This document shows, piece after piece, positions 38,922 to 45,551 of a stretch of DNA of 64,000 bases. The notes below the pieces were generated by a model that was not told the DNA's origin, searched no databases, and saw only the letters and a list, made by a program, of their open reading frames with translations. The number at the start of each line of letters is the position of its first letter. Positions within the stretch are counted from its first letter, which is position 1. The stretch covers positions 192,001-256,000 of the forward strand of contig CAWCIZ010000002.1 of assembly GCA_963795855.1 (NCBI GenBank), written 5' to 3'. This DNA comes from Vulcanimicrobiota bacterium. GTDB lineage: Bacteria > Vulcanimicrobiota > Vulcanimicrobiia > Vulcanimicrobiales > Vulcanimicrobiaceae. The position numbers and the translations under genes are program-made.

Positions 38922-39665
38922 CTACGGCGCGTGTGCCAGCGTTTGCGCCGCGCGTTCCAGGTCGACGGCCAACGCGCGGAGTTCCTTGCAGATGTTCGCG
39001 CTGTTGGCATGGAGAATGTCGCGCCACATCGCTTGGCCGGACCGGCTTAAACGCAGCAGTTCGCGTGCCGCGGGCCCGAGCGCAGTTGATTCCTCCGGCA
39101 GGCGCGCCGCGAACGCATTCGCGAGGATCTGCGGAACGTGGGAAGTCAACGCGACGGCGCGATCGTGCGCGTCGGCATCTATTGCGACGGGACGCGACCC
39201 CAGCGCACCAATGAATTGCGCGGCGTGTCGGTCGAGCTGCGCATCGCCGGTAGGAACGTAGAACCACGTTTTGCCGTCGAACAAATCGCGCTTGGCCGCC
39301 GAAGGCCCGCTGCATTCGCGTCCCGCCATGGGGTGCGTTGCGACGAAGTTTCTCAGACCGCGGGCCGCGCGGACGATCGCCCCCTTCACGGACGACACGT
39401 CCATAATCATGCTCGCGCGAGGCGGTTCGCAACGCATGCGCTCGATCTCCGCAAGCGTACCGCCGACGTGCGCGGCTATCACGATTGTGTCGGCCGCTTC
39501 GAGCAATTGCGCACGGCTGACGCACCGGTCGATTGCGCCGAGACGCGCAGCCTCGCGCGCCGCCGCCTTCTCGAGGTCGAAGCCTGCAACGCAGTAGCCC
39601 ATTTCGCGCGCGCGAATGCCTATGGAAGCGCCGATAAGGCCGGTCCCGATGATGCCGAGCGTCAC
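38922..39665 (-). CDS. tyrA: Prephenate/arogenate dehydrogenase
   Basis: GIIGTGLIGAS, DVSSVK, THPMAGRE.SG, HDRAVALTSHVPQ, MWRDIL..N. Confidence 0.9.
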   Translation of the reverse strand: MTLGIIGTGLIGASIGIRAREMGYCVAGFDLEKAAAREAARLGAIDRCVSRAQLLEAADTIVIAAHVGGTLAEIERMRCEPPRASMIMDVSSVKGAIVRAARGLRNFVATHPMAGRECSGPSAAKRDLFDGKTWFYVPTGDAQLDRHAAQFIGALGSRPVAIDADAHDRAVALTSHVPQILANAFAARLPEESTALGPAARELLRLSRSGQAMWRDILHANSANICKELRALAVDLERAAQTLAHAP

Positions 39666-40033
39666 GAAGCCGCCCGTACGAGATCGGGGCGAAGCACGCG
39701 GGCGCCGTCGAGATACACGTGCTCGACCTGCCGTTGCGTGCGCGCGGTGTTGACGTGCATCAGGACGCGAATTACCCGCGGGAGCGAACCCGCGACGTCG
39801 ATTTCCGTAAAGTGCAGCATCGGCACGTGCACCCAACCCATCGCGCGTGCCCCTATTGCCGGGAATGCCGCGCGGAGATCCGGCGTGACGCTGAAAAGCA
39901 CGGACGCTATGTCGTCGATATCGACTTCGTTTTCGTCAATCATCGCAATCAGCAGCCGCTGCGTTACCGCAAATATCGCTTCCGGATCGTCGGCGTGAAC
40001 GGTGATCGCGCCGCGAATGCCGCGAATTTTCAC
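39662..40033 (-). CDS. aroH: Chorismate mutase, AroH class
   Basis: IRGIRGAITV, FSVTPDLRAAFPA..AR, HVYLDGARVLRPDL. Confidence 0.93.
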   Translation of the reverse strand: MKIRGIRGAITVHADDPEAIFAVTQRLLIAMIDENEVDIDDIASVLFSVTPDLRAAFPAIGARAMGWVHVPMLHFTEIDVAGSLPRVIRVLMHVNTARTQRQVEHVYLDGARVLRPDLVRAAS

Positions 40034-41328
40034 GAAACCGCCTCGAACAATGCCGTCTCGGCGCGGAGCGTCGACAACGTGCGAAAAAATGCGGGGTATG
40101 AAACGGCGACGCATTCGGCATCGAAAATCGTCGTGTTGCCGCGCGCCGCGAGGGCCGCGACGGTTGCGGCCATGGCGATCCGATGATCGCCGTGCGGATC
40201 CACGAGCCCGCCGCGCAAACGCTGCGGCCCGTCTATGACGAAACCGTCGTCGAGCGTTTCGAGATCGGCGCCCATGACTCGCAGGACGTCGGCGATTGCC
40301 TCGATGCGATCGCTTTCTTTGACCCGCAGCTCGCCCGCTCCGCGCACGACCGTTCGGCCTTGCGCTTGCGTCGCGACGACCGCAAGCAGCGGCAGCTCGT
40401 CGACCAGCGCAGGCACGTCTTCCGCTCGGAGCGTTATGCCGCGCAGCGCGCTGCTGCGGACGCGTAAATCTCCGATCGGTTCCGGATGCGTTCGGCGCAG
40501 TGAAAGCTCGACGTCGGCACCCATCCGCCGCACCGCCTCGAGGAAGCCGCTGCGCGTGGGATTCAGCGAGACGTCACGCAGCACGAGGTCGCTGTCGCGC
40601 GTTACTAGCGCCGCCGCGAGCCACGCCGCCGCGCTCGACGGATCGCCCGGTACTTCCACGAACGCTCCCTGCAAATGCGCGTCGCCCTCGATCGCAATTT
40701 CGTCGTCCGACGCGTCCAGGTGCACGCCGAAACGCGGCAATAAGCGTTCCGTATGATCGCGCGAGCGAATCTTCCCGCGCAACCGCGTTCGCCCGTTCGC
40801 ACGCATGCCGGCGAGGAGCAGCGCGGTTTTGAGCTGCGCGCTCGCGACCGGCAACTCGTAGTCGATCCCCTGAAGAGAGGCGGTGCCCGCGATCTCGAGC
40901 GGTGCAACGCCGCCGGCGCCGAGCAGCATGCGCGCACCCATGCGCTCGAGCGGTTCGGCGACTCGGCGCATCGGGCGCCGCGATAGCGACGCATCCCCCG
41001 TGAGCCGCGCAGTGCCCTCGCGTGCGGCGAGAATGCCCATTAGTAAGCGCATCGTCGTGCCGGAGTTCGCGCAGTCGATCGTCGCGCCGGCGGCGTCGAT
41101 GCCGCCGCCCTGCACCACGACCGCGCCTTCGTTTCGCTGAATCTGCACGCCGCAGGTTTCCAGCGCGCGAATCGTTGCGGCCACGTCGGCGCTGCGCGGA
41201 ACGCCCGTAATACGCGTCCACCCGCGCGCCATGCCGCCGAGCAGCAGCGCGCGATGGGCGATCGATTTATCGCCCGGTACGCGAACGTCCCCGCGCAATG
41301 CGTGCGCGCGGGGGATCTGCACTTCCAT
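40030..41328 (-). CDS. aroA: EPSP synthase (class II)
   Basis: VPGDKSIAHRAL, NSGTTMRL, GDASLSRRPMRRV, ASAQLK, RDHTER, ELRVKESDRI, DHRIAM. Confidence 0.96.
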   Translation of the reverse strand: MEVQIPRAHALRGDVRVPGDKSIAHRALLLGGMARGWTRITGVPRSADVAATIRALETCGVQIQRNEGAVVVQGGGIDAAGATIDCANSGTTMRLLMGILAAREGTARLTGDASLSRRPMRRVAEPLERMGARMLLGAGGVAPLEIAGTASLQGIDYELPVASAQLKTALLLAGMRANGRTRLRGKIRSRDHTERLLPRFGVHLDASDDEIAIEGDAHLQGAFVEVPGDPSSAAAWLAAALVTRDSDLVLRDVSLNPTRSGFLEAVRRMGADVELSLRRTHPEPIGDLRVRSSALRGITLRAEDVPALVDELPLLAVVATQAQGRTVVRGAGELRVKESDRIEAIADVLRVMGADLETLDDGFVIDGPQRLRGGLVDPHGDHRIAMAATVAALAARGNTTIFDAECVAVSYPAFFRTLSTLRAETALFEAVS

Positions 41329-42193
41329 CAGGCGGTGGCCTCACAAAGTTCGACGCGTTCCTTTGCATCATGAAACACGGGAATCCGGGCGAGATCGTCA
41401 ACGATTTGCGCGAAGTCGTCGAAGGTCAGCGCTTGTTCCCTGTCGCTCTTCGCCTCCGGCGGATTCGGATGCACTTCGATGAGAATTCCGTGGGCGCCGA
41501 CCGCTTTGGCCGCGCGGCAGAGCGGGCGTATCCAACGACGCACGCCGACGCCGTGACTGGGATCGACCAGCACCGGCAAATGCGAGCGCTCCCGCAGGAC
41601 GGGAACCGCAGAGAGATCGAGCGTGTTGCGCGTAGCTGTTCGAACGTGCGAATGCCGCGCTCGCACAGGATCACGTTCGGATTGCCTTCGGCGAGAATGT
41701 ACTCTGCAGCCGCGAGCAGCTCGTCGATCGTCGCGGAGAAACCCCGCTTCAGCAGCACCGGTTTACCAGTCCGGCCAACCGATTTGAGCAGGTCGAAATT
41801 CTGCATGTTTCGCGCGCCGATCTGCAGCACGTCCACGTGCAGCGCCATACGCTCGACCTGGTCGATCGTCAACACTTCGCTTACCGTAGGCAGCGCTGCC
41901 GCGCGACCCGCTTCCGCCAGCAGATCCACGCCCTGCCAGCCCAGGCCCTGAAACGCATAGGGACTCGTGCGCGGTTTGAAGGCGCCGCCGCGTAGCATCA
42001 CGGCTCCGAGCGCTTTGGCGCGACGCGCCGTTTGCAAGATCTGTTCCCGCGACTCGACCGCGCATGGACCGGCGATGATTGCGAATTCCCCGTCGCCGAT
42101 TCGAATGCCGTCCACCTCGACGGACGTACCGCGCGGCTGCGCCTGCCGCGATACGCGCGGCAGCGAAAACTCTTGAACGACCTGCTTGAACAT
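41328..42193 (-). CDS. aroF: DAHP synthase type I-beta (frameshift near 41640)
   Basis: IAGPCAVES, RGGAFKPRTSPYAFQG, QIGARNMQNF, LCERGIRTF then TRNTLDLSAV...VDPSH...EVHPNP; AGGAG RBS. Confidence 0.9.
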
Positions 42194-42218
42194 GACGGGC
42201 TCCTACGAACGCACGGAC

Positions 42219-42255
42219 AAAAAATAAAAACAGCCCCCGCCGGACGGCGAGGGCT
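42219..42255 (-). terminator. Attenuator terminator hairpin upstream of the aro operon
   Basis: Minus strand AGCCCTCGCC-GTCC-GGCGGGGGCT-G-TTTTTATTTTTT. Confidence 0.88.
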
Positions 42256-42278
42256 TGTTGCGAACTCGAGTTTACAGA

Positions 42279-42365
42279 CTATCTCGTCAAGTGCGCAAAC
42301 AAGCTCTCGGCCCGTCCGGCGGACGGCCAATACCAGTAATACGCATACGAGAACGAGACGTTCAT
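42279..42365 (-). CDS. Aromatic amino acid attenuator leader peptide MNVSFSYAYYWYWPSAGRAESLFAHLTR
   Basis: 28-aa ORF (31 aa from the in-frame ATG at 42374) with 7 aromatic codons in a 9-codon run, immediately upstream of the terminator and the aro operon. Confidence 0.88.
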   Translation of the reverse strand: MNVSFSYAYYWYWPSAGRAESLFAHLTR

Positions 42366-42371
42366 TTGCGC

Positions 42372-42402
42372 CATCTAACCATGTGGGGCGGTGGAGTGTC
42401 AA
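42372..42402 (-). promoter_or_regulatory. Candidate sigma70 promoter of the aro leader
   Basis: Consensus TTGACA at 42402-42397; weak -10 (TTAGAT/TAGATG) 18-19 nt downstream. Confidence 0.5.
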
Positions 42403-42422
42403 GTGCCGGCGAACGGCGAAGC

Positions 42423-43454
42423 ATGCAGATAGGCGAGCAGCACAGTGAAATGGAGGGCGGCGGCCTCTACAACGCGCACTCGCGGCCGCAGGCCTCGGCA
42501 GGAGAACTGGGGATTCCGCTTCTGCAGCGAGCAGCGCTGGAGGTGCCGCATCACCAAGGCTGCATTGGCGTTGCCGATCTCGGGTGTTCTCAAGGTAAAA
42601 ACTCCATGTCTCCGATGCGTGCCGCGATTGCGTCGCTGCGCTCGCGGGATGCGGCCGCTGCCGTCACGATAACGCACACCGACCTCCCCGCGAACGACTT
42701 CAACGCACTCTTCGGGCTGATCGGCTCATCCCCCGAGAGTTATCTGCGCGAGCAGCACAACGTCTACGCGTTTGCCGCGGGCGGTTCGTTTTACGCGCCG
42801 CTCTTCGCGCCGTGCAGCATCGATCTCGCGTGGAACTCGATCGCGGTTCATTGGCTGAGCGGCGTTCCTTGCGACATCCCGGGCCACATTTGGTCGCCTT
42901 TCGCTCAAGGGCAGGTTCGCGACGCATTCGCACAACGAGGCGCCGAAGATTGGCGCAGCTTCTCGATGCACGCGCGTGCGAACTGCGCCCGGGCGCGCAA
43001 TTGGTCGTCGTCGCGAGCGGCGCTGATGAAGCGGGATTTTCCGGCGCCGAGGGGCTCATGACCTTGGCTGAAGGCGTGTTGCGCGACATGGCGCAACGCG
43101 GCGATATTTCTAGCGCGCAGTACGAGGCGATGGCGATTCCGACATACTACCGCACGAAAGAGGAGTTCGAAGCGCCGCTGCGGGCATATTCGCCGTTTAC
43201 GCTGCTCGAGTCCGAGCCGGCGGTGCTCGCGGATCCGTTCTGGAACGCGTACGCCGGTTCGCGGGACGCGAGTGCGTATGCGCAAGCCGTCTCGGCATTC
43301 TTTCGGGCGTTCAGCGAGCCATGTTTGTTCGGCACATCGAATTCAGCAGCGGCAGACGCGTTTTACGCGGCAGTCGTGAAACGAATCGAAGCCGACCCCG
43401 CTGCAGCATCGTGCAAGTGGCAGACTGCTGCTGATGCGCTTACGGCGCGAGTAG
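42423..43454 (+). CDS. SABATH-like SAM-dependent carboxyl methyltransferase (frameshifts near 42961 and about 43425)
   Basis: MEGGGLYNAHS..Q, VADLGCSQGKNS, DLPANDFNALF, GSFY..LF, AVHWLS, DW..FL.AR..ELRPG, IPTYYRTKEE. Confidence 0.85.
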
Positions 43455-45551
43455 CGCTTCCAAGTCTTCCGCGCGAAGATTCGGCGTCGACGCGTCCGCC
43501 GCGTCGAACAGCGCGCCGGCCAATTCGGCTTTACGAGCCTGCAACTGCAGGATCTTCTCCTCGACCGTCCCGGCGGCAACGACTTTGTACACGAAAACCG
43601 CCTTCTCTTGGCCGATGCGGTGCGCCCGATCCGTCGCCTGCTGTTCGACCGCGGGATTCCACCACGGATCGTAGTGGATGACCGTATCCGCCGCGGTCAG
43701 ATTCAAACCGGTTCCGCCGGCGCGCAAACTGATGAGAAACACCGGCACTTCGCCGCTCTGAAAGCGCCGCACCGGCGTTGCGCGATCGAGAGTGGAACCC
43801 ACGAGTTCCGCATACGGTATGCCTACGCGATCGAGCTCCGGTTTGATCAGATCGATCATGCTCGTGAATTGCGAGAACACAAGCGCGCGACGCCCCTCGT
43901 CGACCAACTGCTCGAGCGTTTCGAGGAGCCATTCGAGTTTCACGCTGGAATGCGCGCGCACGGCGCTCGAAAGTTTCACCAACCGCGGGTCGCAGCAGAC
44001 TTGGCGCAACTTCAGCAGCGCGTCGAGCACGGCAATGCGGCTGCGCGCCAGGCCCAAGCGTTCGATCTCGCGGCGAACTTCTTCATGCACGGCAACCCGC
44101 ACCGATTCGTACAAATCCCGCTGATCCGCCGCGAGCTCCACGCGCTCGACGATTTCGATCTTTTCCGGCAACTGCAGGGCGACGCCGGCTTTCGTGCGCC
44201 GCAAAACGAATGGGCGAATGCGCCGCGCGAGCATATCGCGGCGCTCGGAGGAATTCTGCTTTTCGATCGGCGTGCGGAACATGCGCGCAAAGGTGCGTTG
44301 ATCGTAAAGAGCGTGCGGTATCGCGAAATTGAAAAGCGACCACAGCTCGCCGAGGTGATTTTCCATCGGCGTGCCCGTCAAACAGAGCCGTTGTTTGGCG
44401 CGCAGTTTGGACGCGGTACGCGCCACCTTGGATTGAGCGTTTTTTATCGCCTGCGCCTCGTCGAGAACGGCGACGTCCCACTCCCTCTCCAGAAAAATTT
44501 CGTCACGCACGAGCAGCGCGTAAGTCGTAATCACAACGTCGCTGCGGTCGATCCGATCGTGCAGCCGCTCGCGGTTGGGGCCGTGTAGCGTGAGAACGCG
44601 CAGCGACGGCGCGAAGCGTTCGATTTCGGCAAGCCAGTTCGGGACCAAGCTCGTCGGAACGACCAGCAGCGAGGGCGGCGGCTCGGAATCGTTGCGCCGA
44701 GCCTGACGGATGTCGAGTAAATGCGCGATCGCCTGCACACTCTTGCCTAAGCCCATGTCGTCGGCCAAGATGCCTCCGCACTCGTAGAGGCGCAGAAAGC
44801 GCAGCCAACGGAATCCTTCGTGCTGGTAGTCGCGCAGGGTAGCCTTCAACCCGTCGGGTATTGCCGCATCCGGAATACCCTCCACGGTGCGCAAACGTTC
44901 GGCCAACCGGTGCAGCGCTTTTGCATGTTCGTCTTCGGCCTGCAGTTCCGGCAACGCTTGTGCGATGCCGAGCGCCGCGAGCGGCCCGAGCGTGAGCTTT
45001 CCGCGCCGCGAAAATTGCGGATCCTCATGTAACTCCACCAACGTTTCCAGCACGCGGCGAATACGATCCATCGGCAGTACGACGACGCGCCCGTCCACGT
45101 TCGCATATGCGACCTCGCTCTGCGGCAGCGCTCCGGGATCCATCCCGCGCAGCACGTCGACGACGAGCGGCAACAGCGCAACCCGTTTCCCGTCGATTTC
45201 GACGCCGAGATCCAAGTCGAACCACTCGCCGGCGCGGGATTCGAGCCGCGCATCCCAAACCGCGCTTGGCGCGCTGAGATCGACGAAGAGATCGTAAAGA
45301 GTGTCGTCGATTTCGACAGTCCAGCCCGCGCGCTCGAGTGCTGGTACCCCTTCGTAGCGAAACCGGGCCCACGCCATCGGCGATGCGTTGCCTTGAGGCA
45401 GCCCCGCCGCAAGAAGCGCCTCGGTCTGCTGGGGCGGGGCGTCGGACTCCGCAAACCCGACGCGCGTGCGCACGCGCTTGGGCTGATCCCCTTTGTGCGT
45501 TCCAAAATCGTAGCGTTCTTCAACGCGCGTGGAGATTCGTAAAAGCGGCAA
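43440..45551 (-). CDS. SNF2-family helicase (no SWIM domain seen)
   Basis: LRDYQ.EG..WL, GILADDMGLGKS, LDEAQAIKN, TGTPMENHLGELWS, LISLRAGGTGLNLT, WWNPAVEQQATDRAHRIGQ. Confidence 0.93.
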   Translation of the reverse strand: MPLLRISTRVEERYDFGTHKGDQPKRVRTRVGFAESDAPPQQTEALLAAGLPQGNASPMAWARFRYEGVPALERAGWTVEIDDTLYDLFVDLSAPSAVWDARLESRAGEWFDLDLGVEIDGKRVALLPLVVDVLRGMDPGALPQSEVAYANVDGRVVVLPMDRIRRVLETLVELHEDPQFSRRGKLTLGPLAALGIAQALPELQAEDEHAKALHRLAERLRTVEGIPDAAIPDGLKATLRDYQHEGFRWLRFLRLYECGGILADDMGLGKSVQAIAHLLDIRQARRNDSEPPPSLLVVPTSLVPNWLAEIERFAPSLRVLTLHGPNRERLHDRIDRSDVVITTYALLVRDEIFLEREWDVAVLDEAQAIKNAQSKVARTASKLRAKQRLCLTGTPMENHLGELWSLFNFAIPHALYDQRTFARMFRTPIEKQNSSERRDMLARRIRPFVLRRTKAGVALQLPEKIEIVERVELAADQRDLYESVRVAVHEEVRREIERLGLARSRIAVLDALLKLRQVCCDPRLVKLSSAVRAHSSVKLEWLLETLEQLVDEGRRALVFSQFTSMIDLIKPELDRVGIPYAELVGSTLDRATPVRRFQSGEVPVFLISLRAGGTGLNLTAADTVIHYDPWWNPAVEQQATDRAHRIGQEKAVFVYKVVAAGTVEEKILQLQARKAELAGALFDAADASTPNLRAEDLEALLAP

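Follow-up and report, generated by a model that had tools for sequence, protein, structure and literature searches.

The thrL and ilvGMEDA leaders are multivalent, and two Trp codons are enough in the trpL leader of E. coli, an organism in which feedback is split among the DAHP synthase copies by repressors and allostery. Translation of a leader lacking a Shine-Dalgarno (SD) sequence is reportedly the subject of a work whose title stands among the references of the literature related to aroR, a leader described below. The trpL, pheL, hisL, thrL and ilv leaders follow a 1:2 / 2:3 / 3:4 pairing logic with a GC-rich stem and a U-tract (PMC1183508, PMC1262725), their control codons lie just ahead of the antiterminator, and mixed Ile/Val/Leu leaders have been described (PMC1262725). 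In Corynebacterium glutamicum, the leader aroR with the control residues Phe-Tyr-Phe precedes aroF (PMC4046766); ribosome stalling on it raises transcription, which responds to a shortage of Phe and not to a shortage of Tyr (reviewed in PMC11802643), and the presence of a codon therefore does not prove sensing. The uORFC-13-1 motif of Acholeplasma, known from 24 representatives, consists of an upstream ORF (uORF) with a ribosome binding site and a U-run coding for Phe, followed by an intrinsic terminator ahead of aroF, and is predicted to act by attenuation; the accessible part of that report describes no Tyr/Trp cluster (PMC8632094). Leaderless polycysteine small ORFs are attenuators in mycobacteria, the tested one acting by occlusion of an SD sequence (10.1101/834739).

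The leader analysed here lies on the minus strand of a 64,000-nucleotide stretch of DNA (the window) from a bacterium whose nearest named records are Vulcanimicrobiota. It shares the pairing logic, the GC-rich stem with U-tract and the placement of the control codons with the classical leaders, and differs from them in its predicted leaderless start, in its three types of aromatic codons and in its target, the entry of the common pathway. Like aroR-aroF, it places a multi-aromatic leader peptide ahead of a DAHP synthase operon, with the same output predicted. However, aroR carries Phe-Tyr-Phe without Trp, while the window leader, from another phylum, has seven aromatic codons dominated by Tyr and including Trp, so that the two are likened by function and not by sequence homology. 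The uORF, the terminator and the aroF target are shared with uORFC-13-1, unlike the ribosome binding site and the Phe U-run. With the mycobacterial polycysteine ORFs it would share leaderless sensor ORFs, amino acid control and occurrence at multiple loci; the output there is SD occlusion, whereas an intrinsic terminator is predicted here. Published examples already exist of mixed leaders, of leaderless leaders and of an attenuator for DAHP synthase, and the contrast with single-amino-acid leaders that an earlier sequence-only reading of this DNA implied to be new is not supported; the codon mix and the target differ, the mechanism does not. No Tyr/Trp/Phe leader and no attenuation in this phylum were found in the literature covered, which largely excludes subscription journals and older attenuator surveys; the same search returned no tested Tyr-sensing attenuator, and the accessible parts of PMC3082878, PMC4833913 and PMC2659441 contain no mixed aromatic leader. 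No Rfam family reached its threshold in the window (the best match, to an unrelated leader, scored 24.6 bits where 55 were required), and Rfam leader families gave no matches at 10 related loci.

Every element listed by the sequence-only reading was found on the minus strand where that reading had placed it. The predicted promoter comprises a -35 hexamer TTGACA (42397-42402) and, as an addition to that reading, an extended -10 element TG-n-TTAGAT (42373-42381; the hexamer itself at 42378-42373), which lies 18 nt past the -35 hexamer and 7 nt ahead of the uORF start codon and is imperfect, its second position holding T where A is usual. A consensus promoter scan of the locus returned no sites because the -10 lacks this A. 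The leader ORF MNVSFSYAYYWYWPSAGRAESLFAHLTR (42279-42365, 28 codons) has no SD sequence, and its translation from the 5' end of the transcript is predicted. Its control codons 5 to 13 (42327-42353) read F5-S-Y7-A-Y9-Y10-W11-Y12-W13, i.e. four Tyr, two Trp and one Phe, and also form the 5' strand of a predicted protector (1:2) helix (42278-42363; -35 kcal/mol by stepwise minimum free energy folding). The small hairpin noticed earlier directly after the control codons is present as a 6-bp core (42326-42312), and caps this much longer predicted helix, which includes the control codons. A predicted antiterminator (2:3) helix (42232-42328, with approximately 42328-42294 paired with 42262-42232) sequesters, in the folding, the 5' arm of an intrinsic terminator (3:4; 42219-42255), which consists of a 10-pair stem at 42255-42232 and a U-tract to 42219. 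The aroF SD sequence AGGAG (42200-42204) lies outside both switch helices, ahead of the aroF ATG at 42193. The 28-codon ORF is present as claimed, but its length is suspect because the six other leaders of the same genus, with 25-26 codons, lack a T found near 42301 in the window copy and because the assembly shows several frameshifted genes (aroF, a methyltransferase and trpA); the extra T may be an assembly error.

The leader stands ahead of four overlapping genes on the minus strand, namely aroF, encoding a class I-beta DAHP synthase (41328-42193, read in two frames with the shift near 41620), aroA, encoding EPSP synthase (40030-41328, its start overlapping the aroF stop), an aroH-type chorismate mutase gene (39662-40033, GTG start overlapping the aroA stop) and tyrA, encoding prephenate dehydrogenase (38922-39665, GTG start overlapping the aroH stop). 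This operon contains neither a trp gene nor pheA. The aroF product lacks the N-terminal prephenate dehydratase (PDT)-ACT part fused to it in relatives, and no PDT domain was found in the window genome, which is 86% complete. In relatives, the first gene encodes a PDT-ACT-DAHP synthase fusion, found in 76 of 301 genomes of the phylum, all belonging to the window's family. Such fusions also occur in Myxococcota and Actinomycetota records (L035, L036, L040-L050). No similar leader was present within 330 nt upstream of the match for the fusion genes of Myxococcota and Chloroflexota; the same 330-nt stretch is still coding in Actinomycetota and is hence uninformative on a leader. Six such loci outside the Vulcanimicrobiota gave no covariance-model matches. 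In genus g18 (L148, L150), a second prephenate dehydratase-like gene follows tyrA within the operon. Divergent from the aro promoter, a SAM-dependent carboxyl methyltransferase of the SABATH type (PF03492) is encoded on the plus strand at 42255-43681 in two frames.

The aromatic codon cluster and the fold of the leader are more than chance. At least seven aromatic codons occur in just two stretches among the 6.1 million nine-codon segments of the whole genome in six frames, the window leader being one of them, and the 147-nt leader has a minimum free energy of -62.9 kcal/mol (z = -4.5), a value as low being reached by none of 200 shuffles.

Conservation was examined at 79 orthologous loci of the family, of which 67, from 22 genera, carry the leader. 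A TTGAC-type word, which stands at the head of all 67 leaders, and a minimum of three aromatic codons were required by the search rule, and neither counts as independent evidence; codon counts cover the 67 leaders, and folding and promoter statistics 65 of them. One of the 67 comes from the unpublished genome G034, and G254 is counted twice for its two loci; the unpublished G025 and two partial records (G309 and one piece of G001) stand outside the 79. Twelve loci have no leader: seven belong to genus g53, two are single loci, two lie at contig ends and one is G250. In G250 (L167, G250:C1 near 1374150, plus strand) the promoter almost abuts the start of pheA-aroF, the uORF and the terminator being gone, which may represent a natural loss or an assembly collapse; L039 shows a similar gap, with Ns. 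Outside the search rule, all 65 leaders possess TG and a -10-like hexamer 17-18 nt past the -35 (TTAGAT in all seven members of the window's genus), 7-10 nt separate this hexamer from the start codon in every case, and a terminator hairpin with a U-rich tail is found in all 65 by a lenient rule. An SD-like word precedes the uORF in only two of the 65, which, like the spacing, fits the earlier suggestion of leaderless or near-leaderless translation. Within the first 16 codons the mean number of aromatic codons is 6.1, compared with 1.2 for the other two frames, a difference inflated by the selection for at least three. The leader ORFs of relatives have 24-26 codons, with a full range of 18 to 29, and their size and the residues beyond the aromatic cluster vary freely. 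The -10 hexamer of these 65 leaders always misses one of its three key bases beside a perfect -35 and TG, mostly the second-position A (TTnnAT) and in genus g24 mostly the last T; the promoters of the Trp-leader paralogs discussed below mostly have the canonical TAnnnT, and the aro leader promoter is possibly a tuned-down one. The same leader precedes a stand-alone DAHP synthase gene of another family (G043). In genus g41, which has no fusion gene, a Tyr/Phe/Trp leader lies directly upstream of aroH, and in G161 one lies ahead of a DAHP synthase-chorismate mutase fusion (L278, L280-L282, L287 and L276).

The folding model has no term for polymerase pausing, the event that fixes the start of the control region. 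As the ribosome footprint advances along the window leader, the terminator, at first with a probability of 0, reaches about 0.9 at codons 12-14, in a footprint-dependent manner, and the switch point is predicted just beyond the last aromatic codon. In stepwise folding of the ribosome-free transcript, the protector helix is the best structure for transcripts of 74-114 nt, the Tyr-Ala-Tyr codons pairing with a segment that otherwise opens the antiterminator. For the full leader, folding at equilibrium proved a poor test, and nascent folds cut at the terminator loop were used instead. In these, across the 65 leaders, the 5' arm of the terminator is sequestered with a mean probability of 0.80-0.88 for ribosomes up to one codon past the last aromatic codon and of 0.21 at five codons past it; for a ribosome standing at the stop codon the mean is still 0.39, and a clean on/off rule holds for just 44 of the 65 leaders. 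Shuffling of the middle segment leaves an arm sequestration of 0.63 against 0.87 in the native leaders; six of 200 shuffles equalled the window leader, and just 26 of the 65 leaders beat all 15 of their own shuffles. The antiterminator starts 10-23 nt (median 16) beyond the last aromatic codon, and in the nascent-fold model the positions of 397 of the 399 aromatic codons are compatible with antitermination.

Full-length equilibrium folds switch in just 30 of the 65 leaders, and for the remaining 35 the terminator is favoured wherever the ribosome stands; the model therefore needs the antiterminator to form first and to persist, a kinetic priority that must be assumed here as for the classical attenuators. 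Without a ribosome, the equilibrium fold is the terminator in 61 of the 65 leaders, unlike the window copy, in which the antiterminator (-62.9 kcal/mol) lies 4.5 kcal/mol below the terminator fold (-58.4 kcal/mol). An alignment of 36 of the leaders, scored against shuffled and slid controls that ignore kinship, shows two-sided changes above both controls in the terminator, the antiterminator and the hairpin. In the RNAalifold consensus the terminator has 12 pairs, six of them with two-sided changes. For the antiterminator, scored on the window's own fold, 62% of cells are paired against 57% in shuffled and 33-49% in slid controls, and two-sided cells number 41 against 23; for the hairpin, 72% of cells are paired against 61% in shuffles, with two-sided changes in five of six pairs. 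Folding with and without the ribosome and the alignment of relatives thus agree with the trpL/pheL-type architecture and the mutually exclusive helices proposed from the sequence, the exclusion itself being a prediction of folding.

The locus has a uORF with a cluster of codons for the pathway products, and a terminator separates this uORF from the first gene; antiterminator and terminator sequences that overlap, and a protector helix favouring termination when translation fails, are present by folding. The leader is, with high probability, a ribosome-dependent transcription attenuator of the classical type, acting on aroF-aroA-aroH-tyrA. RNA polymerase would start 0-3 nt ahead of the uORF ATG, and a ribosome would load without an SD sequence. 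With ample charged aromatic tRNAs, the ribosome would clear codon 13 and mask, starting at about codons 15-18, the antiterminator's 5' strand, upon which the terminator would form and transcription would end near 42220. With scarce tRNA-Tyr, it would wait on codons 7-12 and block the protector helix, leaving the antiterminator free and the operon transcribed; in the event of no translation, the protector would form first and then the terminator. The aroF SD sequence lies outside both helices, and the output would therefore be termination rather than SD hiding; occlusion of the SD sequence was rejected as a mechanism on this ground.

The amino acids to which such an attenuator would respond were considered from codon content. 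The first 15 codons of the 67 leaders contain 231 Tyr, 116 Phe and 59 Trp codons. All three amino acids are represented in 45 leaders, Phe and Tyr in 11, Trp and Tyr in 10, and Phe only in one (L171); Tyr is hence present in 66, whereas 12 leaders have no Trp and 10 no Phe. Of the 67, 55 retain a Trp codon, single in most and at shifting positions. Phe has a good position in many relatives, 44 of the 116 Phe codons occupying the last two positions. In the window copy, Phe is represented by one codon, at position 5, at the 5' edge and in a pairing segment, ahead of an operon without pheA, and this residue is replaced by Arg in the G004 leader. Sensing of Tyr by the window leader is likely under the fold model, that of Trp is plausible from the codon comparison, and that of Phe in this copy appears doubtful. 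The response would be weighted by codon number, strongest for Tyr, real but smaller for Trp and weak or absent for Phe. The earlier claim that all three amino acids are integrated is only partly supported: Tyr dominates, Trp has indirect comparative support, and Phe is the weakest in this copy.

The indirect evidence for Trp comes from a second DAHP synthase gene, which in some genomes directly follows trpE-trpG and has its own leaderless Trp-rich leader, e.g. MKISFARYWWWLTARQMPVS (L192-L202, L331, L333, L340, L020-L022). This paralog is present in the genomes of 8 of the 12 Trp-less aro leaders and of 4 of the 55 that hold Trp (by subtraction, 7 of 11 Trp-less leaders when the unpublished G034 is excluded); by genus, the figures are 5 of 6 and 3 of 16 (Fisher p = 0.011, kin not being independent). 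Scoring of the paralog used identity to a single query, with checks of 16 other DAHP synthase loci, so that distant copies may have escaped; searching the DNA with the Trp leader missed the known positive G024 and was not used for conclusions. In a quick tree of 75 rows, which excludes genus g18, the short piece of G001 and one contig-end row, the genomes with the paralog cluster in one part, and the Trp contrast amounts to about three to four events, with sister contrasts between G022 and G034 and between G008 and G033 with G236. Within the window's genus, G000 (the window genome) and G005 have no paralog and two Trp codons, whereas G001-G004 have the paralog and one Trp codon; G006, which is 80% complete, is an exception with one Trp codon and no paralog found. 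Further exceptions are G181, G305, G259 and G206, in which trpA is present, the leader is Trp-less and no second Trp-leader enzyme was found. A role of Trp is thus partly supported, in that loss of its codons appears to track the Trp-leader paralog.

The trp genes themselves appear in two settings. Among 57 trpD loci, 28 directly follow rplQ, 26 follow trpE-trpG and three are uninformative, and rplQ lies just upstream in all 20 fetched regions ahead of trpE. No promoter-linked Trp leader was found ahead of the 57 trpD or in the 20 trpE-side regions; G182, beyond this set, has a Trp leader ahead of trpD. In the window genome, trpEG lies within a flagellar cluster, with a flagellar gene and no paralog after trpG, and trpDCFBA begins 29 nt after rplQ of the ribosomal alpha operon (G000:C2:74518-78942, minus strand; counterparts at L341-L429). 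The T-box family RF00230 has no matches in the window genome, the locus included. The window leader would be the only leader-type Trp input of this genome.

Similar leaders are spread more widely. A covariance model of the aro leader finds matches in 83 of 151 genomes of the phylum and in 61 of 71 within the family, often several per genome, and 35 of 39 further matches chosen by hand and read show the same promoter-ORF layout, with codons mostly fitting the next gene. These include Val/Leu/Ile leaders ahead of ilvB, ilvC and a threonine dehydratase-like gene, a Thr/Ile/Met leader ahead of aspartate kinase, and Cys/Met leaders ahead of sulfite reductase, PAPS reductase and Cys/Met PLP enzymes; leaders with aromatic codons ahead of aroA are also among the model matches. 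In the window genome, a leaderless ORF rich in Met and Cys, MPISYSPMFCMCCCREQAARTAFA, together with a terminator precedes the homoserine dehydrogenase gene hom and a metY-like gene (G000:C1:237020-236846, minus strand), and such a leader is found at 13 of 28 loci (L222-L232, L235-L237), one of them in G034. It matches the aro-leader covariance model with a rough E-value of 3e-4 and gives an nhmmer E-value of 0.23, and it is possibly the same RNA scaffold with the codons swapped. The match between codons and genes is the strongest argument for the leader ORFs as sensors. Tyr-only leaders (e.g. MFVLNSYAYYYYYGYF...) precede the gene of a 230-260 aa protein (L319, L321, L322, L323, L329, L290), which has no Pfam match at 1e-6 and lies in the Atlas near heme-oxygenase-like/TenA/PqqC clusters (score 0.94); it is a putative Tyr-gated enzyme.

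Several explanations of the codon mix compete within the attenuator model. The most far-reaching one, less likely than not, is that the trp genes of the family are without leaders of their own, on the rplQ operon or in the flagellar cluster, so that aromatic feedback has moved to the shikimate entry, where one leaderless ORF would act as a weighted Tyr/Trp/Phe OR gate whose mix is retuned, Trp codons being dropped when a Trp-leader DAHP synthase takes over. It would include a working Tyr-sensing attenuator within a lineage-wide leaderless kit (aromatic, Met/Cys, branched-chain and Thr) on one RNA scaffold. That the same attenuator is effectively a sensor of Tyr only, with Trp and Phe codons as tolerated U-rich neighbours or kept for pairing, is rather unlikely, although Tyr is the nearly constant residue and Trp, where present, is mostly single, sensitivity in modelling scales with the share of codons that are regulatory (PMC1183508), codons 3-8 are paired in the protector helix with F5 replaced by Arg in G004, and aroR answered one of its two amino acids. 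Such a view is opposed by the loss of Trp in company with a separate Trp-leader DAHP synthase, by the retention of Trp in 55 of 67 leaders despite its shifting position and by the leader of L171, which holds only Phe codons. The sufficiency of two Trp codons in E. coli trpL also speaks against it. A full three-way sensor, in which a shortage of any one of Tyr, Trp and Phe opens the operon usefully, is a sub-case of the codon-weighted attenuator set out above and is likewise less likely than not. It accords with the 45 leaders that hold all three, with the antitermination-permitting positions of nearly all aromatic codons and with the first gene of most relatives, a PheA-DAHP synthase fusion for which Phe control would fit; the window copy, however, has a single Phe codon at position 5 and no prephenate dehydratase found in its 86% complete genome, and the permitted positions come from a model without the polymerase pausing that sets the start of the control region.

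The remaining alternatives lie further from amino acid attenuation. Since Tyr, Trp and Phe codons all begin with U, the leader could read the modification of tRNAs for U-starting codons (MiaA/MiaB type) or the general speed of translation, and U-starting codons do make up 33 of the 140 non-aromatic codons in the clusters against 7% in the main genes. This excess is Ser, at a UCN:AGY ratio (30:10) similar to the background (808:368), while Cys and Leu-UUR are not enriched, and a sensor of UNN codons or MiaA was rejected on these grounds; the commonest spacer, Ala GCG, is explained by pairing, and the codons in sister leaders of the same scaffold are Met/Cys or Val/Leu/Ile, depending on the gene, which leaves this the most improbable of the explanations. 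Translational attenuation, a protein or small-molecule switch, or a functional peptide, with the aromatic codons incidental, is very unlikely. Precedents for it are the mycobacterial leaderless Cys ORFs, which act by SD hiding (10.1101/834739), and the Streptomyces ilvB leader, in which mutated codons were without effect (PMC1262725), but the U-tract after the stem, the position of the aroF SD sequence outside both helices, the freely varying size and outer residues of the peptide and the absence of an Rfam match in the window and at the 10 related loci all tell against it.

The mechanism is a textbook one and a two-amino-acid precedent ahead of aroF has been published, hence the element is only moderately surprising; with it, the range of classical attenuation comes to include a little-studied phylum. 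The 67 leaders constitute a natural series differing mainly in the mix of Tyr, Trp and Phe, on which one can test what number of codons, and which positions, an amino acid needs in order to count in a multivalent leader. The association of Trp-codon loss with an isoenzyme dedicated to Trp suggests an ability of leaders to divide feedback among copies of DAHP synthase.
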